From UHGV virus genome UHGV-0322223: a DNA stretch of 33,830 nt; one strand, given 5' to 3'. Shown piece by piece: positions 5,380 through 33,830 of this stretch. Within the stretch, counting starts at the first letter, position 1. Every line of letters starts with the position of its first letter. The translations under genes and the position numbers were made by a program. The notes beneath the pieces were generated by a model. That model was not told the DNA's origin, ran no database searches, and saw nothing but the letters and a program-made list of their open reading frames with translations. This stretch comes from a virus.

Positions 5380-7422
5380 TTACGCTTCTGCTAAAGCTCT
5401 TCCTAATTCTCGTCTGTCTAAAAACATTGTAACTTCTTGTTTTTTCCCCGCTATGGCGATTAATATTTTCTCGATCGCGTCTAGTGTCTCCTCGATTTCA
5501 CGCCGCCCGTTTTCGTTCCCTGTTTTTTCGATTTTTGCCGTGTATGATAAATCTGTAACCAATGGATCATACGCAGCTTTTTTTATAAAGTCCGTGGAGT
5601 CTGTCACTAATTTTGCATCACCCGAAATTCCGTTTGCAATTCCTTGATCGATCATTCTTCCTACATATTCGCCCCACCGCGATGGCGAATGGATTCCGAA
5701 GAAGTCAAGAATCTTGTCTTTAAAGTCTCCTAAGGCGCTTTTTACTGCATCCCACAGTGCACCGGCTGCGTTTGCTAATCCATTCGCGATTCCTTTTATG
5801 ATGTTTAATCCGATTTCTCCCCAATCTACGGATGTAAACTCATTTTTTATGTTGGTTATAATCGTCGGAATTTGTGCGATCAAATTCGGGATCGCTCGTA
5901 TAAGTCCCGCGGCTAATTTCCCGATGATTTCGATTCCGCTTTGCAGCACTGACGGCAGATTCCTTCCTATCGCCGCTACATATTGCATGATTGCGCTTCC
6001 TGCTGCCGATGCAATCTGCGGCAAATTCGTTATGATCCCATTAACAAGTTTCAAAATGAGCTCTGCTCCCTTTTGCATTATCACAGGTAGCATCGGTGCC
6101 ATTCCGTTGACGAAGCTTACTATCGCTTCGCCCGCCATTGTAATTAATTCCGGGAGCGATTCCAGTATTCCGTTTGCGATTTTCGTCACCATCTCGCTGC
6201 CCTTGTCCAAAAATTCCGGTAATTTCTCCGATATTCCCGTCATGATCGTGTCTATTATATTTGTGTCTGTTCCTAATATTTCAACCGCCGCTGTCTCCAA
6301 TCCCGTTTTTAATCCCGTTATCAGATTTTGCGCAACGAGCAGCCAATCTGTCGTTAAAATTGCATTTGTAAAAGACGCTACCAAGTTCAGCGCCGCCTCC
6401 GCAAGGTACGGAAGTGCTGTTACAATTCCTGTTACAAGCGACGTCACGAACGAAACTCCTGATTCCAATATTTGATCGCTGTTCTCTGCGATCATGTTCA
6501 GCCCTGCCGCCGCAAAATCCTTTCCGAGCAAATCAGGAATTGACGCCAGTACATTTCCGATCATCGGTATTAAGTTACCCGTCAAAAATGTAGCGACCGT
6601 TTCTCCTACCTGTTTTAATTCGTCCGTGATATCCTCTCCGATAGCGATATTTCCAAGTAGATTGTTAAACGCCGCTTTCATGGATGCCAAAGACCCCGAC
6701 AGTGTTGTTTCCGCTTCTTTCGCCGTTGTTCCTGTAATTCCAAGCTCTCCTTGTATTACATGAATCGCCGAGTATACGTCTGATAAATTATTGATATCAT
6801 ACTTTACTCCTGTAATTTTTTCCGCATCCGCAAGCAGCCGCTCCATTTCCGTTTTTGTGCCGCCGTATCCTAGTTTTAGGTTGTCCAGCATTGTGTAGTT
6901 TTGCTTTGCAAAGCCTTGATATGCGTTTTTGATATCCTCCATGTTCGATCCCATTTTGTTCATGTTATCGGACATGTCTGTCATTGCCATATCTGCCACA
7001 TCTGCCGCTTTAGCTGTATCATTTCCTAAACTTTGTAACAGACTCGCGGAGAAGCTTGTTGTTAACTGCATGTATTCGTTTGCGCTCATCCCAGCCGTCT
7101 TGTAGGCGTTCGCAGCGTTTTGTTTTACTTTCTCTGCACTGTCTTTAAATAGTGTTTCAATTCCGCCTATGCTTTGCTCTAGTTCTGCACCTTCGCTGAT
7201 TGACGCAGAAATGGCTTTTCCGATCCCCGCCGCGATTACAGCGACTTTGATCGCTCCGCCGATTCTGCCTCCGAGCGATTTTCCTGCCGCATCCGTTTCT
7301 CCGCCTACTTCGTTTTGCAGCATTCCGCCTATCCCTTTTGCGGACGGTATAATTTGCACATACGCCTTCGCAAGTTCTGTCTTTTCCACTATTTCACCCC
7401 TTTTTCTGTCAGCCGTTTCCAT
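5380..7422 (-). CDS. Tail tape measure protein
   Basis: A 680-aa ORF, rich in Ala/Gly/Ile and helical, with a GIGKAISA-type N-terminal region typical of tape measure proteins. It lies between the chaperone pair and Dit. Confidence 0.85.
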   Translation of the reverse strand: METADRKRGEIVEKTELAKAYVQIIPSAKGIGGMLQNEVGGETDAAGKSLGGRIGGAIKVAVIAAGIGKAISASISEGAELEQSIGGIETLFKDSAEKVKQNAANAYKTAGMSANEYMQLTTSFSASLLQSLGNDTAKAADVADMAMTDMSDNMNKMGSNMEDIKNAYQGFAKQNYTMLDNLKLGYGGTKTEMERLLADAEKITGVKYDINNLSDVYSAIHVIQGELGITGTTAKEAETTLSGSLASMKAAFNNLLGNIAIGEDITDELKQVGETVATFLTGNLIPMIGNVLASIPDLLGKDFAAAGLNMIAENSDQILESGVSFVTSLVTGIVTALPYLAEAALNLVASFTNAILTTDWLLVAQNLITGLKTGLETAAVEILGTDTNIIDTIMTGISEKLPEFLDKGSEMVTKIANGILESLPELITMAGEAIVSFVNGMAPMLPVIMQKGAELILKLVNGIITNLPQIASAAGSAIMQYVAAIGRNLPSVLQSGIEIIGKLAAGLIRAIPNLIAQIPTIITNIKNEFTSVDWGEIGLNIIKGIANGLANAAGALWDAVKSALGDFKDKILDFFGIHSPSRWGEYVGRMIDQGIANGISGDAKLVTDSTDFIKKAAYDPLVTDLSYTAKIEKTGNENGRREIEETLDAIEKILIAIAGKKQEVTMFLDRRELGRALAEA

Positions 7423-26771: not shown

Positions 26772-26975
26772 AGATATAACCACTACGGTGATTATATAAA
26801 GTGGTGTTAAAGGAACAGGGGACAAAAGAAAGTCTAACTATTAAAAGTCAAGGTTAAAATGAAGATTTTTTGAGTAAATTGCAGAAATGCTTTTCAGATA
26901 TATTTGAACCTTGAAAACTGCATGACAATAAGAGCATCTTTGCAGGTGCTCTAAAAGGAGATATGAAGTTAAATT

Positions 26976-28151
26976 TTATGCTGCTCTATGATAAAGCTGC
27001 CCTGACTTTTCTAGTTGGTAAATAACCCTGACCAGTTTCTTGGCAGCATGGGATATGGCAACATTATAGTGTTTGCCTTCGGAACGCTTCTTTGCAAGAT
27101 AAGCAGAGAACTGATTATCCCAAATGCAGACAAATTTTGTCGCATTAAACAGCGCATAGCGGAGGTAACGGGAACCACGCTTTTCCATGTGAGAATAACA
27201 GCCGTCAAGCTGACCTGATTGGTAAGTAGAGGGAGAAAGTCCTGCATAGGCAAGTATCTTGTCAGGGGAACTAAAACGGTTGAAGTCGCCAATCTCAGCA
27301 ATGATCATCGCACCCATTCGGTAATTGATACCGGGGATGGAAAGAATTGGAGAGCGGATTTCGTCCATAATGGATTTAATGGAGCATTCTATTTCATCAA
27401 TCTCAGAAGTTAATTCCTGAATAAGCCGAATTGTGTGCTTTAGTTCAAGAGATTTTGCAGGCATATTTGAACCGATGGAATGTTTGGCGGCATTTCGGAT
27501 TTCTATGGCTTTTTCCTTATTGTAGTGTCCCTTAGAAGCATTCGCCAGCAGATTTGTGAGGCGAGTCAGATGGCATGAAGCAATCTGAGCAGAAGAAGGA
27601 AACTCGGCTAAGAGTGCGTATATAGAAACCATGTGAAGACTAGGAACAAGTTTTTCCAGTTCAGGGAAAAGGATGTTAACAAGGCGTGAGATAGAAGTTT
27701 TCAGTTTTGCTCGTTCTTGTACTTTATCAAACCTGTATCTGGTTAATGACTTAAGCTCTTCGTTGTGATAAGATGTGTTTGAGTAGGACTGTAAGTTTAC
27801 TCCAGACATCATCATAAGAGCAATCGTATGGGCATCCACTTTATCGGTTTTTGTCTGTCTAAGGCTAAGACTTTTACGAAACAGATTGGTATGCAAAGGG
27901 TTGATGACAAAGGTGGGGAGACCTTTATCAATGAGAAAACCTAACAGATTGTAATTGTAGTGTCCGGTAGCTTCCAGTCCTACTTTTACGTTAGAAAAAT
28001 CATTTGTTAAGGAAGAAATCTTTTGAAAGAGGTCATGGAAACCATCCGCATTGTTTGGAATAGTAAATGCGTTAAAAAGCACTTCTCCTTCTGAGTTTGT
28101 GATAAAACAATCGTGTTTGTCTTTTGCAACATCAATACCAATATAAATCAT
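26976..28151 (-). CDS. IS110-family transposase / recombinase (DEDD)
   Basis: A 391-aa ORF with N-terminal MIYIGIDVAKDKHD..., typical of IS110/IS1111 transposases. Its GC content is distinct from its flanks. Confidence 0.85.
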   Translation of the reverse strand: MIYIGIDVAKDKHDCFITNSEGEVLFNAFTIPNNADGFHDLFQKISSLTNDFSNVKVGLEATGHYNYNLLGFLIDKGLPTFVINPLHTNLFRKSLSLRQTKTDKVDAHTIALMMMSGVNLQSYSNTSYHNEELKSLTRYRFDKVQERAKLKTSISRLVNILFPELEKLVPSLHMVSIYALLAEFPSSAQIASCHLTRLTNLLANASKGHYNKEKAIEIRNAAKHSIGSNMPAKSLELKHTIRLIQELTSEIDEIECSIKSIMDEIRSPILSIPGINYRMGAMIIAEIGDFNRFSSPDKILAYAGLSPSTYQSGQLDGCYSHMEKRGSRYLRYALFNATKFVCIWDNQFSAYLAKKRSEGKHYNVAISHAAKKLVRVIYQLEKSGQLYHRAA

Positions 28152-28400
28152 GGCAAATCTCCTTTGAATATATTTGACACTGTTTTAGAACCACAGTTGC
28201 TCTTCGCAGTTGTGAACTCGTTCTAAATAAACCGTCATGCGGTATCTAACTGATTAACAATCAAGCAAAGAGACTGTGGCTGGACACTTTCTGAAACCAT
28301 CAAAGTGGTAGAGAGGAAACACCAGTCCACAGCATCTTATATATCATAACCATACCTGTAGAAAAGGTAAAGAATGGTTATGATGGAAATAGCATACAGA
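28152..28400 (-). ncRNA. Presumptive IS110 bridge RNA region (5' non-coding region of the recombinase gene)
   Basis: Established knowledge: IS110-family elements encode a structured bridge/seeker RNA upstream of the recombinase gene. Seen here: a 250-bp ORF-free region with multiple stem-loops, including an 11-bp IR ATCATAACCAT...ATGGTTATGAT at 28343-28384. Confidence 0.3.
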
Positions 28401-28495
28401 CCTTGGAGAGGGTCTATAAATACTACTACTTTATAATACGAGAGAGGGAAGTAAAAACGCTATGAAACAAAAAGAAAAATATTTTTTCGATAAAA

Positions 28496-29209
28496 ATGAG
28501 GTCATCGGAAATAAAAAAAAGAGCTATAAAAACCCTTAATGAGCTGCTTGAAGCACACATTAAAAAAGCACCTGAAGACAGCACAACAGAAAACGATTCC
28601 CATCTCAAAAAAATAAATCTGCTTTCGTATTGGATCAATACATATTGTAGATTTATTAAAAAAGAAAAAACATTTGATGCTTCAAAAAATAAAGTATACA
28701 AAAGAGGTGAAATTATTCAAGTTGACCTAGGCTTTCGTATTGGTCATGAAGAAGGCGGATTGCATTATGCGGTTGTTTTAAATAAAAAAGACTCCCCTTA
28801 TTCCGATATATTAACCGTACTTCCTCTTTCATCTAAAAAAGAATATACCACACCTAATAAATTCACTATTGATTTGGGAAACGAAATATATGATAAGCTC
28901 CATCAAAAGTATATGCAAAAATTCAATAATTCAATTCAAGATGTGAAAGTATCGCCAAATCCGGTGTATGCCGGAGAGAAAATAACGATAGCTTTTACAG
29001 TAGATACAACGGAAGCCGATAAGGTGCAAAAAGAAATTGATTTAATGAAAACTGGAAGCATTGGCTTAGTTTCTCAAATCACAACAATTAGCAAAATACG
29101 AATAACAAAACCTTTGCATTATTCCGATGCTTTTGCAGGTATAAAATTAAGCGATGAAAGTTTAAATATAATAGATAAAAAAATCTGCGAATTATATATT
29201 GGTAAATAA
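28496..29209 (+). CDS. MazF/PemK-fold domain protein with an N-terminal extension and an approximately 80-aa insertion
   Basis: RGEIIQVDLGFRIGHEEGGLHYAVVLNKKDS...ILTVLPLSSKK ... GLVSQITTISKIRITKPL aligns to the MazF beta-strands (GDLIWVDFDPTKGSEQAGHRPAVVLS..CVPCTTQ..ADQVKSIAW). The region is AT-rich. The ATG has a poor SD. An A8 homopolymer lies at 28514-28521, and an out-of-frame 25-aa ORF with a better SD starts at 28461. Confidence 0.5.
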   Translation: MRSSEIKKRAIKTLNELLEAHIKKAPEDSTTENDSHLKKINLLSYWINTYCRFIKKEKTFDASKNKVYKRGEIIQVDLGFRIGHEEGGLHYAVVLNKKDSPYSDILTVLPLSSKKEYTTPNKFTIDLGNEIYDKLHQKYMQKFNNSIQDVKVSPNPVYAGEKITIAFTVDTTEADKVQKEIDLMKTGSIGLVSQITTISKIRITKPLHYSDAFAGIKLSDESLNIIDKKICELYIGK

Positions 29210-29224
29210 TTATAGTATAAAGTA

Positions 29225-29253
29225 TTGACTTTTGGGGCATACCAACATATAAT
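29225..29253 (+). promoter_or_regulatory. Perfect-consensus promoter TTGACT-N17-TATAAT
   Basis: Read directly: TTGACT at 29225-29230 and TATAAT at 29248-29253. Confidence 0.6.
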
Positions 29254-29257
29254 GTTA

Positions 29258-29344
29258 TAGAACAAAACACCTTAGCGTGTATAACATTAGGACAATGCAG
29301 TTTACCTGCACAACTTAGACCCCGTAGTAATACGGGGTCTTTTA
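29258..29344 (+). ncRNA. Candidate small RNA (about 85 nt) between the consensus promoter and a strong terminator
   Basis: There is no ORF with an SD between the promoter and the terminator. It lies immediately upstream of the toxin-like peptide gene. Confidence 0.35.
29317..29344 (+). terminator. Rho-independent terminator
   Basis: A 10-bp stem AGACCCCGTA / TACGGGGTCT with loop GTAA, followed by TTTT. Confidence 0.7.
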
Positions 29345-29473
29345 CGTTATACGAAATATACCCGACACTCCCAAAGTCGCCGGAGCATATACGAAGGAAA
29401 ATGTATTTACCAGGGTAGCCGGAGGACGAGCTTCCACCCATTCCGAGAATCCTGTGGAGGGGGGGTGGTAATT

Positions 29474-29557
29474 ATGAGTACATATGAAGAACTCAGTTTG
29501 ATCATAAGCATTGCGCTTTTGGTTGTAGCCATTCTGAATTATACGCATAAAAAATAG
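29474..29557 (+). CDS. 27-aa hydrophobic peptide (type I toxin-like)
   Basis: MSTYEELSLIISIALLVVAILNYTHKK has a single TM helix and a charged C-terminus. The SD GGAGGGGGGGTGG is very strong. An upstream CCACCC (29437-29442) can pair with the GGGTGG of the SD, which would sequester it. Confidence 0.35.
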   Translation: MSTYEELSLIISIALLVVAILNYTHKK

Positions 29558-29726
29558 CCGTCCTGCCCTGACAAAGCTGACGACTATTTCTTATAGTTTT
29601 TTAAGTTGCACCGGAGCGGGTGAGGTGCAGTCACCTTCCGGCTATCCTGTTAAGTACATTATAGCAAATGTACCATAAATGTCAACTATCTAGATTTTCC
29701 AAATAGTTAGAAAGAGGGTGTGATAA

Positions 29727-30620
29727 ATGGATGATTTTGAAAACAAATTAACTGAATTACATGATCGTGTTCTTAGTAAGGCTCTTACCGAGGATGAACA
29801 GAACAGCTATACCGAATCTTTATTTGAATCCATTAAACATATCAATGAATATGGAGAGGAGTTTTGGTACGCAAGAGAACTTCAGCGTGCTCTAGAATAT
29901 ACTGAGTGGCGCAACTTTTCTAGAGTTATTGATAGAGCTGTAACCGCTTGTGAAAATAGCGGAAATGATGTCTTTCATCATTTTGTTGAAGTCAACAAAA
30001 CGATAGATATGCCTAAATCTGCAACAAAAGAAATTACAGATTACGCACTCTCCCGCTATGCATGTTATTTAATTGTACAGAATGGCGATTCCCGGAAAAA
30101 GGTGATTGCTCTCGGTCAGACATACTTCGCCGTAAAGACAAGACAACAAGAATTAATAGATAATTTTAACGAATTAAATGAAGACCAAAAGAGATTAGCT
30201 ATCAGACGTGAAATGGCAGAGCATAATAAATTATTAGTAGAAGCCGCAAAAAATGCAGGAGTTGAAACAAACCTTGATTACGCTATCTTTCAAAATTATG
30301 GGTATCGTGGTTTATACGGTGGTATGGATGCAAAGGCTATCCATCACCATAAGGGATTGAAACCATCTCAAAAAATCCTTGACCATATGGGATATGAAGA
30401 ACTTGCCGCTAATTTATTTCGCGCCACACAAACAGAGGCTAAAATTAAACGTGATAATATACAAGGGAAAGAAAATGCCAACCAGACGCACTATAACGTC
30501 GGTAAAGAAGTTCGTGATACTATTTCACGATTAGGGGGAACGATGCCAGAGGATCTCCCCACCCCAACTAAAAGCATTAAGCAGATCGAACGCGAGCAAA
30601 AGAAACTGGAAGATAGATAG
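29727..30620 (+). CDS. DinD-like (DNA-damage-inducible protein D family)
   Basis: The N-terminal region GEEFWYARELQRALEYTEWRNFSRVIDRAVTACENSG...HFVEVNKTI......ITDYALSRYACYLIVQNGDSRKKVIALGQTYFAVKTRQQE closely parallels E. coli DinD. SD GAAAGAGGGTG is present. Confidence 0.65.
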   Translation: MDDFENKLTELHDRVLSKALTEDEQNSYTESLFESIKHINEYGEEFWYARELQRALEYTEWRNFSRVIDRAVTACENSGNDVFHHFVEVNKTIDMPKSATKEITDYALSRYACYLIVQNGDSRKKVIALGQTYFAVKTRQQELIDNFNELNEDQKRLAIRREMAEHNKLLVEAAKNAGVETNLDYAIFQNYGYRGLYGGMDAKAIHHHKGLKPSQKILDHMGYEELAANLFRATQTEAKIKRDNIQGKENANQTHYNVGKEVRDTISRLGGTMPEDLPTPTKSIKQIEREQKKLEDR

Positions 30621-30833
30621 AAAAACCGCCCCTGCGTCAACAGGAGCGGTCAACACGCCCTCTCCGCACAGCAGAGATAGGACGGCTTAACTATAACATC
30701 TCCGGAGATGCTACAGCATTCCAACCAAAAAATATTGTATCATCTTCGGTCAGCTATCGCAATCAGAACATCTGTTTTTGATAGCTGTTATTTTTATACC
30801 TTTTTACATATAATTACATAGGAGTGTGATGCA

Positions 30834-32366
30834 ATGTCTTATTTTATTTATGCTCGTAAATCAAGGAAGGATGCTGATCTCGAAGCGTTGGGAATCGATG
30901 TGCTCGAGCGCCATATCACCACTTTGCTGGAGCTTGCCAAAACGCTGTTGCTTCCGATCGGGGCAATTTATCGCGAAGTCGTCTCCGGCGACAGTATTGA
31001 TTCCCGCCCGGTGATGTCTCAAGTGATGGCCGAAGTAGAGTCTTGTATGTGGGACGGATGTCTTGTTATGGACGTTGACCGCCTCGCCCGCGGAGATACG
31101 ATCGATCAAGGGCGGGTACAGCGTGCATTTTTCTACTCAAACACAAAGATCGTTACTCCTAACAAGACGTATGATCCGGCAAACGAGTACGATAACGAAT
31201 ACTTTGAATTTAGTCTGTTTATGAGTCGCAGAGAATACGCAACAATTAAGCGCAGGATGCAGCGTGGCAGAGAACGAAGCAGCTCTGACGGATATTATGT
31301 CGGAAATATACCGCCCTACGGATGGCGTCGCGTTATCGCTCCTGATGGTAAGCACTTCTCTCTTGCTCCCGATCCAACCGAATCCCCCGTGCTCGATCTG
31401 ATGTATGATCTATGCGGCAATAAACAATACGGTTATCAAAAAGCATGTACTCATATGGCCGAAATGGGAATTTTATCAAGAAGCGGACGCCCGTTTACGC
31501 CGTCCACGCTAAAAGGAATTATATCTAATCCGGCAAATATCGGAAAAGTTCGCTGGGGACATCGGAAAACGGTTCGTACGGTCAAAGATGGGAAAATTTC
31601 TCGTTCTCGCCCGCACTCGTCAGATTATATTCTTGCCGATGCAGTTTGGCCGCCCCGGATCAGCGCGGACCTTTTCCAGCGTGCCAACCAGCCAAAAGGG
31701 AGCTGCTCCGCTCCGGTGCGTGATGACAGACCGATTCAGAATATTTTTGCCGGTCTTGTCCGGTGTTCCCAGTGTGGCCGGCTGATGGTTCGTAAAAAAG
31801 CGCATACTAAAACGCCTTATGACATTCTGATTTGTCAATATACTGAATGCCCTACAGTCGGTATCCGAATTGATGAGTTAGAGCTCGCCTTGTTGGAATG
31901 GCTGCGGAATTACATAGATAAATACGAGCTCACTGACGCGTTGCCCGAAGACGTGGAGAACGTCGCTGCAAAAGAAGCGATTGTTAAGAATTTTGAAAAA
32001 GAACATGAAACGCTTTTAAAGCAACGTGAATCCCTTTTTGATTTTCTCGAGCAGGGTATCTATACGAAGGAAATTTTTATCGAGCGGTCAAACGCTCTTG
32101 AGCGACGCGTAAAAGAATGTATGGAGCACATTATCTCCGCGCAGAACGACCTTCACGCCACACTCGCACTACAGGCAAACCGTAAAAATTTCGTTCCGCG
32201 CTGTAAGAATTTGCTCGGCGAATGGGGTAGACTTACAATTCCCGAAAAGAACAGCGCTTTAAAGGTTTTAATTGAAAAAATCATGTTCACAAAGACAAAA
32301 CGAAACAAAAAGGGGCAGGATCGTTCTGATTTTGAAATTGATGTGTTTCCAAAAGTGCCGAAATAG
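30834..32366 (+). CDS. Large serine recombinase (phage integrase)
   Basis: A 510-aa ORF. The N-terminal resolvase domain has the catalytic Ser in FIYARKSRKD and the ..VMDVDRLARG motif. It also has a recombinase domain, a Zn-ribbon (CSQCGRLMVRK...C), and a C-terminal coiled coil. SD AGGAGTG is present. Confidence 0.85.
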   Translation: MSYFIYARKSRKDADLEALGIDVLERHITTLLELAKTLLLPIGAIYREVVSGDSIDSRPVMSQVMAEVESCMWDGCLVMDVDRLARGDTIDQGRVQRAFFYSNTKIVTPNKTYDPANEYDNEYFEFSLFMSRREYATIKRRMQRGRERSSSDGYYVGNIPPYGWRRVIAPDGKHFSLAPDPTESPVLDLMYDLCGNKQYGYQKACTHMAEMGILSRSGRPFTPSTLKGIISNPANIGKVRWGHRKTVRTVKDGKISRSRPHSSDYILADAVWPPRISADLFQRANQPKGSCSAPVRDDRPIQNIFAGLVRCSQCGRLMVRKKAHTKTPYDILICQYTECPTVGIRIDELELALLEWLRNYIDKYELTDALPEDVENVAAKEAIVKNFEKEHETLLKQRESLFDFLEQGIYTKEIFIERSNALERRVKECMEHIISAQNDLHATLALQANRKNFVPRCKNLLGEWGRLTIPEKNSALKVLIEKIMFTKTKRNKKGQDRSDFEIDVFPKVPK

Positions 32367-32385
32367 CGGCGTTTTTCATTCGTTG

Positions 32386-32423
32386 CATCTTCTACGAGCG
32401 AAAGAACTCGCTCGTAGAAGATG
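32386..32423. repeat. 15-bp perfect inverted repeat CATCTTCTACGAGCG-N8-CGCTCGTAGAAGATG, 20 nt after the integrase stop
   Basis: Read directly. It is not followed by a T-run. Confidence 0.6.
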
Positions 32424-32460
32424 AAGCTAATTAAATAATGATAAGATGATGCAATATTTC

Positions 32461-32492
32461 TCCCCGGAGCTGATACTCCGGGGAATATTTTT
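32461..32492 (+). terminator. Hairpin TCCCCGGAG-ctgata-CTCCGGGGA followed by an AT-rich T-run; likely terminator between the integrase and the convergent endolysin
   Basis: A 9-bp perfect stem followed by ATATTTTT. Confidence 0.5.
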
Positions 32493-33465
32493 AATATAAC
32501 TGGAATTTATCAAGCGCAATGCCGAAACATCCGGCATATCCGTCCTGCCCGTTTCCTACTTCATTGTCGAATTGCCACGGATAGTAACCGCCGCCAATCG
32601 GAGCAACTCTGTACTGCGCTTTTTGATAACCATATTTTGCAACAATATCCGCCGGAGTATCATAATATACCTCTACGGCATCGATCACAGCTCCCGGATA
32701 TCCAGCATAGCCGTTGTTTGCGTCAGACCAGTTACATCCGGTTACGTAAGGTAACCATCCCTTGCCCTTTACATGCACGCGGTATTTTACAGTACCTTTA
32801 TTAACCTTTATCGCGATACCGGCGATTGTACGACCCGGAAGTCCTGCAAAATCAGACAGGTTATTCACAAAGGGCAGGATTGTTCCGTCGGTCAACATAA
32901 CGCCATAAGTAAACACAATGCCGGGATCACCGGATGCTGCACTGCTTCCGCCTCCACTGACAACCGGAGCATCCGGCAACTTGTCCATTCCCATATACTC
33001 ACGGATTTTATTAATAAAATATGTTTTACAGCCAGATGTGCCCCCATGAATCTCTACAGATCTGTGCGGACACGCTGTTGCATACACCTCCTTGTGCAGC
33101 CGGATTGTATTCGTGTTTGGAACGATACCGTACTGCTTACACTTCTGCGCTGCCAGCTTCAACGCATTCTCTTCATTTTTCTTAAAGATTTCCAAATCCC
33201 CCATACTCTGACAGACCTCGATCGAATAATAGTTCCGGTTTCCGTCTGTCTGCCCGCAGTGCCATGCTGCGTAGGCATCATCTTCCGCATACAAGATCCC
33301 GTCACTAGCTACATAAGCGTGAGCAAATCCGTTTTCTAACGGATGCGTTTGCAGCCATTTTCTGTAAAACGCTGCATTTGCATTTTGTGATCCTGCATCG
33401 TTGTGAATAAAAATTCCTCTCGGATTTCCACCTCTAAGTCCTGCTACTCCTCTACAAATACTCAT
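32491..33465 (-). CDS. Endolysin: N-acetylmuramoyl-L-alanine amidase (Amidase_2/PGRP) with a C-terminal cell-wall-binding region
   Basis: From the ATG at 33463-33465, with SD AGAAAGGAGAAGAAC. The motifs are GIFIHNDAGS...AWHCGQTDGNRNYYSIEVC...LHKEVYATACPHRS. The ORF-track N-terminal 17 aa lack an SD. Confidence 0.8.
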   Translation of the reverse strand: MSICRGVAGLRGGNPRGIFIHNDAGSQNANAAFYRKWLQTHPLENGFAHAYVASDGILYAEDDAYAAWHCGQTDGNRNYYSIEVCQSMGDLEIFKKNEENALKLAAQKCKQYGIVPNTNTIRLHKEVYATACPHRSVEIHGGTSGCKTYFINKIREYMGMDKLPDAPVVSGGGSSAASGDPGIVFTYGVMLTDGTILPFVNNLSDFAGLPGRTIAGIAIKVNKGTVKYRVHVKGKGWLPYVTGCNWSDANNGYAGYPGAVIDAVEVYYDTPADIVAKYGYQKAQYRVAPIGGGYYPWQFDNEVGNGQDGYAGCFGIALDKFQLY

Positions 33466-33512
33466 GTTCTTCTCCTTTCTTCCGGCATTTGCACCGGCGC
33501 AAAAGAGGGCGA

Positions 33513-33821
33513 TCACTCGCCCTCTGAATCTCCATCTTTATTTACGACCTTGTCTGCAACCTCTAAACCTTTAATCAATATAATCGGCACGTTAAATCCA
33601 GCTTCTACGAAATTTTCCAAAATCGAGCGAATCTCATTTATAAGCAAGCTGGCCAGTACGAACCATCCAAGCAATGTAGTGATCCCTAAATCTACACCGA
33701 TCGCCTTACCGATCTCGATAAAGATTGCCGATGCCCCAAACGCAACCATAATCATAAGCCAGTACCCCAACTTCTTAAGGACGCCTTTCCAGCCTCTGAC
33801 AGAGTTTTCTTTGTTGGCCAT
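33513..33821 (-). CDS. Holin (TcdE / Phage_holin_4_1-like)
   Basis: A 102-aa ORF with TM segments and the C-terminal ...LLINEIRSILENFVEAGFNVP pattern, as in TcdE-family holins. It lies immediately upstream of the amidase. Confidence 0.7.
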   Translation of the reverse strand: MANKENSVRGWKGVLKKLGYWLMIMVAFGASAIFIEIGKAIGVDLGITTLLGWFVLASLLINEIRSILENFVEAGFNVPIILIKGLEVADKVVNKDGDSEGE

Positions 33822-33830
33822 CTTGCTCTT

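Follow-up and report, generated by a model that had tools for sequence, protein, structure and literature searches.

A 27-aa peptide and a minus-strand antisense RNA that converges on its gene probably constitute a TxpA/RatA-type type I toxin-antitoxin-like module, located at the lysogeny/integrase end of a Lachnospiraceae prophage. The module was found in UHGV virus genome UHGV-0322223, whose whole 33,830-nt stretch is referred to here as the window. We infer a toxin-antitoxin function from family membership and architecture, both the antisense transcript and the toxicity of the peptide being predictions. The defining trait of type I systems, a noncoding RNA gene complementary to the toxin mRNA, was found in silico in the form of a conserved promoter followed by a covarying two-hairpin RNA. 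This kind of module is already known and its mechanism is the expected one; the conserved, covarying RNA partner is previously undescribed. A type I module had been proposed in the initial annotation of this DNA, and its peptide, its sequestered Shine-Dalgarno sequence (SD) and its prophage architecture stood, while the RNA put forward as the partner, which lies upstream, did not.

Relatives were collected in several ways. A search based on the neighboring DinD, an extremely common protein, yielded a set of near-identical prophage ends (L001-L013). A peptide query padded with the in-frame translation of the leader found 44 homologs, and gene callers often wrongly extend these homologs into the leader. 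A degenerate DNA pattern for AILNYTHKK retrieved 68 stretches from one-genome-per-species contigs, nearly all of them from Lachnospiraceae and about 60 of them distinct, intact 27-aa ORFs, and the same pattern recovered 46 viral contigs from IMG/VR. Locus L014 belongs to [Ruminococcus] torques ATCC 27756, a cultivable carrier. DNA and tblastn searches of phage and plasmid collections returned nothing, the 27-aa query probably being too short or of too low complexity. As the loci are mutually related, the shuffle and permutation statistics given below overstate their independence.

The peptide and its leader

The elements of the toxin gene, all on the plus strand, are as follows.

29397..29402, position of the toxin -10 box (GAAAAT in the window)
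29409..29473, toxin 5′ UTR, predicted to start near 29409 (alignment A3, pair counts)
29410-29433, leader 5′ element
29434-29439, anti-SD CCACCC, which pairs with GGGTGG at 29463-29468
29449-29455, leader loop ATCCTGT, directly 5′ of the SD
29456-29468, extended, G-rich SD, GGAGGGGGGGTGG
29474..29557, 27-aa TxpA/Hol_Tox-family peptide MSTYEELSLIISIALLVVAILNYTHKK (Pfam PF16935, phrog_9488, comparison of 60 CDS)

The ORF opens with the ATG at 29474, and the hydrophobic peptide with a KK tail described initially is indeed encoded at 29474-29557. Its layout, MSTYEE-LSLIISIALLVVAIL-NYTHKK, is that of a single hydrophobic helix with a charged C-terminus and fits the Hol_Tox/TxpA type. Residues 1-24 score 28.3 bits against PF16935 (Hol_Tox), above the curated gathering cut-off of 23.3 bits. 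Of the Fst/TxpA/BsrG-like assignment first suggested for the toxin, the TxpA part is upheld by this match and the Fst part is not: the Pfam scan of the 27-aa peptide gave Hol_Tox and a weak Class_IIIsignal match, with no Fst family among them, which by this test places the peptide outside the par/Fst toxins. The B. subtilis TxpA sequence matches the same Pfam model with 31.3 bits and is 43% identical to the window peptide across 23 residues (residues 1-23). The peptide also matches phrog_9488, a 27-position PHROG family with no assigned function, and its close homologs carry the NCBI name "putative holin-like toxin". Proteins annotated as holin-like toxins have been described as members of the TxpA family, to which the 27-33-aa proteins BH0344 and EF3263 were also tied; EF3263, a short TxpA-like gene, has an RNA of ~110 nt antisense to its 3′ UTR, and Clostridiales also contain TxpA-like sequences (Fozo et al., 2010). 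A later review names Clostridium bolteae for toxins of this type. All 60 distinct toxin CDS are 84 nt long, so that the length of 27 aa is fixed, and the entropy at codon positions 1, 2, and 3 is 12.4, 5.8, and 27.8, respectively. Because the variability falls mostly on third codon positions, we conclude that the ORF is under purifying selection as a coding sequence.

Since RNAalifold gave no useful consensus on the alignment of toxin 5′ UTRs, a structure was drawn by hand, with a hairpin at the 5′ end, the helix between anti-SD and SD, and a second, small hairpin immediately 5′ of the SD, and tested against controls in which the partner columns were slid. In this structure 87.4% of the cells are paired vs 33-59% in the slid controls, a comparison that favors the structure as it was derived from the same sequences. 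Double changes occur in 10 of the 15 leader pairs (alignment A3). Within the anti-SD:SD helix, pair 49-88 is CG in 24 sequences, UA in 15 and GC in 6, and the helix as a whole takes the forms CCACCC:GGGUGG (the window), UCACC:GGUGA, GCACC:GGUGC, and UUCCC:GGGAA. The CCACCC:GGGTGG pairing noticed originally is therefore not only present in the window, it belongs to a helix that covaries across relatives, which supports the reading of a sequestered SD. The window leader by itself is not unusually stable (z = +0.8).

The toxin -10 box reads nATAAT in 41 of 56 relatives, where it continues as ATRCTTACC, and no conserved -35 was found upstream of it among the aligned relatives. Given the degenerate GAAAAT of the window, the toxin may here be poorly expressed, or expressed only via read-through. 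We also observed that the G-run within the SD (29459-29465) differs among prophages that are otherwise 98-100% identical, the window having 7 G, L002 and L011 having 8, and L013 having 9; this could be a hypervariable homopolymer that alters SD pairing or spacing, or an assembly error.

The convergent antisense RNA

Beyond the toxin ORF, the following elements were identified.

29546..29595, both strands, shared bidirectional terminator hairpin, strong on minus and weak on plus
29548..29651, minus strand, predicted antisense (antitoxin) RNA of ~104 nt with two hairpins (fold, covariation, covariance model R1)
29642-29610, minus strand, nested hairpin 1 of the predicted RNA
29650-29644, minus strand, single-stranded 5′ tail ACAGGAU of the predicted RNA
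29658..29685, minus strand (read 29685-29658), antisense promoter TTGACA-N16-TATAAT with a TG extension (TGnTATAAT), 12/12 match
29622..29650, plus strand, segment complementary to toxin 5′ UTR 29411-29433, a candidate 3′ fold-back element (duplex energies)

The initial annotation saw no obvious promoter on the minus strand. This was wrong: the site at 29685-29658, which matches the TG-extended consensus at 12 of 12 positions, is the best promoter match of the whole 3-kb region. At least 10 of 12 positions are kept in all 60 distinct loci (60/60), with a perfect match in 45 and TATAAT in 58, and the spacers vary. The arrangement between stop codon and promoter is also constant. Every toxin locus has a TAG hairpin between the A-run of the KK codons and a T-run, then a nested second hairpin rich in G+C, and then ATTATA-N16/17-TGTCAA, which on the minus strand reads TTGACA...TATAAT. 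The terminator hairpin of the antisense RNA thus starts at the toxin TAG stop, and the KK codons serve as its U-tract.

Several comparisons distinguish the two strands. The same 71 nt of the terminator fold at -24.1 kcal/mol (z = -5.5) on the minus strand vs -11.6 kcal/mol (z = -1.7) on the plus strand, and the stem contains 78 G·U cells on the minus strand vs 11 A·C cells. The full predicted antisense RNA folds at -39.6 kcal/mol (z = -4.86). For an alignment of 57 distinct minus-strand antisense RNAs (alignment A2), RNAalifold predicts two hairpins; with this structure of 21 base pairs, 97.6% of the cells are paired vs 35-56% when it is slid, 15 of the 21 pairs are changed on both sides (95 cells), and none of 500 shuffles reaches the observed values. 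Over the RNA as a whole the minus strand has 111 G·U cells vs 16 A·C cells, which would be G·U if the RNA were read from the plus strand. These counts support the view that the structure of the putative antisense RNA is selected on the strand opposite toxin and dinD.

A covariance model built from alignment A2 (R1) found one strong copy only in the window, at 29548-29652 on the minus strand (99.8 bits, E = 1.5e-19). An R1 copy abuts the peptide on the opposite strand in 46/46 IMG/VR contigs, which were left out of model building and many of which are close relatives; the antisense promoter, too, is present in these 46 contigs. No Rfam 15 family reached its gathering score in the window, RatA and other antitoxin RNAs included, and at E-values up to 10 the region 29100-29800 gave only chance-level hits to mir-2363 and a CRISPR repeat, so the RNA matches no antitoxin RNA family in Rfam. 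By its promoter, its covariation and the model hit, the convergent minus-strand RNA just downstream of the ORF is the real candidate for the antitoxin. The model also revealed tandem arrays, with five copies in L045; arrays of 3-5 module copies occur in L045 (3743-5171), L062, L072, and L076, which are other Lachnospiraceae genomes, and some of their peptides were missed by the C-terminal pattern.

In two close relatives of the prophage, L001 and L003, antisense promoter and RNA are kept and the toxin is absent, from which it follows that the RNA can persist alone. The orphan copy lies at 2817-2926 and scores 58.8 bits. Both relatives are also without the PemK-like gene and the small RNA described below. 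An 11-bp direct repeat, TGAYAAAGCTG, is found in the window at 26990-27000 and 29569-29579 and flanks the segment that is missing in L001 and L003 (IS110 element, PemK-like gene, small RNA, and toxin). Judged from these junctions, the toxin appears to have been lost through a microhomology deletion that left the antitoxin in place.

A separate observation concerns the origin of the RNA. The toxin leader (29397-29440) and the antisense RNA (29610-29663) have in common, in inverted orientation, a -10 box and ~50 nt of 5′ sequence, which gives the antisense gene the appearance of an inverted duplication of that leader.

Genomic context and the upstream unit

The module is flanked by a PemK-like gene and by dinD, whose start is 170 nt downstream of the toxin ORF, and lies 1.3 kb from a large serine recombinase. 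Across the loci, the commonest large neighbors are tyrosine integrases (16), serine recombinases (7), and XRE repressors. The 237-aa protein encoded directly upstream of the module (28496-29209, plus strand) contains a partial PemK/MazF domain (Pfam, 42.6 bits) and strongly matches phrog_1412, annotated as "antitoxin mazE-like" (186 bits). In Enterococcus faecalis, the mazEF locus that adjoins ratA regulates ratA (PMC6563280). Just upstream of the PemK-like gene we found an IS110-family element (26833-28440, transposase ORF 26976-28151 on the minus strand), and the stretch 26833-28440 is absent from L004 and L005, which are otherwise >99% identical. A recurrent minus-strand terminator motif, approximately CCGnCCnnG...GCGCA...GGGCGGTTTTT, accompanies the modules (30624-30651 in the window, and many other loci); its position is either close upstream of the toxin promoter or a little past that of the antisense RNA, and it may insulate the modules from outside transcription. 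At the far end, relatives L001-L010 have a split Mn-catalase gene after the serine recombinase (5600-6894), the presumed integration site, and in the window (32366-33830) the homology to them ends at 32413 and is followed by a minus-strand amidase and a holin. The window may be an excised or circularly permuted phage genome, or have a different junction. A plus-strand promoter-like site at 29568-29597, considered as a dinD promoter and set aside, lies in the terminator loop.

Between the PemK-like gene and the toxin leader lies a further unit, on the plus strand.

29225..29253, sigma-70-like promoter TTGACT-N17-TATAAT, 11/12 consensus positions
29260..29344, candidate small RNA or leader of ~85 nt, lineage-specific (promoter and terminator, fold)
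29317-29340, intrinsic terminator with a 10-bp stem, 6 G-C pairs and a 4-nt loop, followed only by TTTT (terminator search)

Both signals had been pointed out before and both were recovered, the promoter at 29225-29253 with 11 of 12 positions and the 10-bp-stem terminator at 29317-29340, which delimits a well-folded candidate RNA (the 87 nt at 29260-29346 fold at -26.8 kcal/mol, z = -4.9). The surrounding 3 kb are rich in A+T and contain many promoter-like sites (15 vs 9.4 +/- 3.3 expected), so a single match is weak evidence. A 7-aa ORF inside the RNA, MQFTCTT, was dropped, being absent from L013. The unit (29225-29344) occurs only in the prophage lineage with the adjacent 237-aa PemK/MazF-like gene and is absent from ~60 other toxin-bearing loci and from L009. 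In L013 the PemK-like gene is 49% identical, and behind it come a separate TTGACT-N18-TATAAT, a different RNA body, and the same terminator; of the unit in the window, only this terminator is shared with L013 and L023. The candidate small RNA therefore exists in two versions (29260-29344 in the window and ~2770-2880 in L013), each downstream of a different PemK-like variant, which hints that it belongs with that gene; the unit may thus be functionally part of the PemK-like locus. We regard it as a separate lineage-specific element that at most supplies the toxin with attenuated read-through.

How far such read-through goes is the alternative that fares best. The upstream promoter could be the effective promoter of the toxin in this prophage and the terminator at 29317-29340 an attenuator, most transcripts ending as the 85-nt RNA and a few reaching the toxin leader. 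This reading, which is compatible with the TxpA/RatA-type module, is possible but somewhat doubtful to us. It draws on the family -10, degenerate in the window (GAAAAT vs nATAAT), on the point at ~29400, right at that -10, where this prophage lineage first becomes homologous to other toxin loci, and on the terminator stem being followed by just four U residues; moreover, in L013 an independent promoter precedes the same terminator at an equal distance. On the other hand, L009 and most family members do without such a unit, the terminator stem is strong (10 bp, 6 G-C), and no anti-terminator structure was found.

A different alternative concerns the peptide itself, which might be no toxin but a small phage membrane protein, with a role in lysis timing, superinfection exclusion or membrane signaling, and the antisense RNA its regulator. 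The toxicity of TxpA-family peptides depends on host and dose, some candidate type I toxins, YhzE-2 among them, were not toxic, the PHROG family has no assigned function, and L001 and L003 lost the peptide and kept the prophage. Against this, two family members, EF3263 and TxpA, are experimentally toxic (Fozo et al., 2010), and toxin control typically shows the features seen here, namely tandem arrays and layered repression (a sequestered SD, and an antisense promoter of consensus type facing a weak toxin promoter). We consider a nontoxic peptide unlikely.

The initial annotation proposed that the ~85-nt upstream RNA (29260-29344) acts in trans as the antitoxin. Its near-consensus promoter, good terminator, stable fold and position next to the toxin speak in its favor. 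Nevertheless, the energies predicted for its duplexes with toxin mRNA, antisense RNA, pemK-like mRNA, and dinD leader did not surpass those of shuffled sequences, and this result, together with its restriction to the PemK lineage and its absence from the ~60 toxin loci, argues against an antitoxin role; downstream, moreover, there is a partner of much higher conservation. Such a role is, in our opinion, very improbable. We give still less credit to the idea that the region is merely the leader or promoter of dinD, with the peptide ORF and hairpins incidental, as suggested by the proximity of dinD (170 nt) and by the stretch 29569-29726 that stays attached to it in L001 and L003, given that the genes downstream of the module are unrelated among the ~60 genomic and 46 viral loci in which it recurs, that the ORF varies as a coding sequence does, and that the RNA structure appears to be selected opposite the dinD strand.

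Proposed mechanism and related systems

In the TxpA/RatA-type module that we favor, the plus strand would encode a 27-aa single-helix membrane peptide whose extended SD is held by the upstream C-rich anti-SD, and the minus strand would give rise, from a consensus promoter, to the ~104-nt RNA converging on the toxin gene. The antisense RNA would be made in excess over the toxin mRNA, as expected from a consensus promoter compared with a toxin that has a -10 only, degenerate in the window. It would pair with the 3′ part of the toxin mRNA over at least ~45-55 nt, or ~100 nt in case of terminator read-through, and the duplex would be degraded in the RNase III-type manner established for txpA/ratA; for this system and for par, the mechanisms are described in PMC4147584.

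Two further complementarities would add to this scheme. The heptamer ATCCTGT is directly repeated at 29449-29455, in the loop 5′ of the SD, and at 29644-29650, and the loop AUCCUGU is consequently complementary to the antisense 5′ tail ACAGGAU. The predicted duplex (-10.2 kcal/mol) lies 17 nt 5′ of the ATG, and the pairing covaries across loci (CAAGAC:GUCUUG, AACAGGA:CCUGUU, ACAAAGAC:GUCUUUG). Through this contact the tail may also block translation, in a par-like manner. Cognate tail:loop pairs gave -7.38 vs -5.72 +/- 0.24 for permuted ones, with 0/20000 permutations as low, in a test on related loci that are not independent. The loop has a second potential partner of about equal strength in the 5′ end of the toxin mRNA itself, a homolog of the antisense tail, and the comparison between the two ended in a tie. 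The second predicted pairing joins 29411-29433 in the leader to 29622-29650 on the same strand, with -31.4 kcal/mol in the window; cognate pairs average -24.5 vs -19.5 +/- 0.4 for permuted pairs, again from related loci and not as an independent test. It includes 123 G·U pairs vs 8 A·C mismatches, and in 43 of 54 loci the duplex formed by the plus strand is the stabler one when compared with its complement. These values point to a fold-back like that of hok, provided that transcription of the toxin continues past the weak plus-strand terminator.

Taken together, these elements could form a three-element RNA switch that would be new for TxpA-type systems, although we put it forward as a speculation that is more likely to fail than to hold. 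The antisense RNA would be an inverted paralog of the toxin leader (with the -10 box and ~50 nt of 5′ sequence in common), the toxin mRNA would pass a deliberately weak terminator and fold its 5′ end onto its 3′ tail, and the antisense RNA would compete both for that tail and for its copy beside the SD. If true, the switch would merge the logics of hok/sok, par, and ratA in a single 280-nt cassette, which is widespread in prophages of gut Lachnospiraceae.

Type I systems have been experimentally characterized in Bacillus, Enterococcus, Staphylococcus, and Clostridioides difficile; to our knowledge, they are essentially uncharacterized in the commensal Clostridia that dominate the human gut. 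The present analysis gives an explicit annotation to a peptide that is usually missed or wrongly extended in gene calling, and defines an antisense RNA family absent from Rfam that recurs, often in tandem, in prophages and other integrated elements of many Lachnospiraceae of the gut. With alignment A2 and model R1, such loci could be searched for in a systematic way. Prophage stability, phage defense, and counter-selection tools in gut Lachnospiraceae are areas for which the module could be relevant.

The closest known systems are txpA/ratA of the B. subtilis skin element, EF3263/ratA of E. faecalis, and sprG/sprF of S. aureus. With txpA/ratA the module has in common the Pfam family of the toxin (Hol_Tox), the N-terminal MSTYE motif and the location on a prophage-like element, and with EF3263/ratA of E. 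faecalis an adjacent MazF-type gene. However, the window peptide has 27 aa and TxpA 59, and the window antisense RNA has no Rfam match, so that its likeness to RatA is one of toxin family and architecture. It also differs in being complementary to the toxin leader, whereas no complementarity of RatA to the translation initiation region is reported (PMC4147584).

The predicted arrangement resembles the par locus of pAD1 in Enterococcus faecalis (Fst, RNA I/RNA II) in its convergent RNAs that end at one terminator, in a short direct repeat that would be transcribed in both directions, and in the complementarity of the antisense 5′ end beside the toxin ribosome-binding site. Nevertheless, the window toxin is Hol_Tox and not Fst, there is one repeat of 6-9 nt where par has DRa plus DRb, and the window loop could pair instead with the toxin's own 5′ end. 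As for hok/sok of plasmid R1, whose full-length mRNA folds back on itself, the resemblance lies in a leader 5′ end complementary to a same-strand segment ~200 nt downstream, a sequestered SD, a strong antisense promoter, and a weak toxin promoter. In the window the 5′/3′ complementarity is conserved and strand-asymmetric, and the pairing would need read-through of the plus-strand terminator. [quoted passage not shown]
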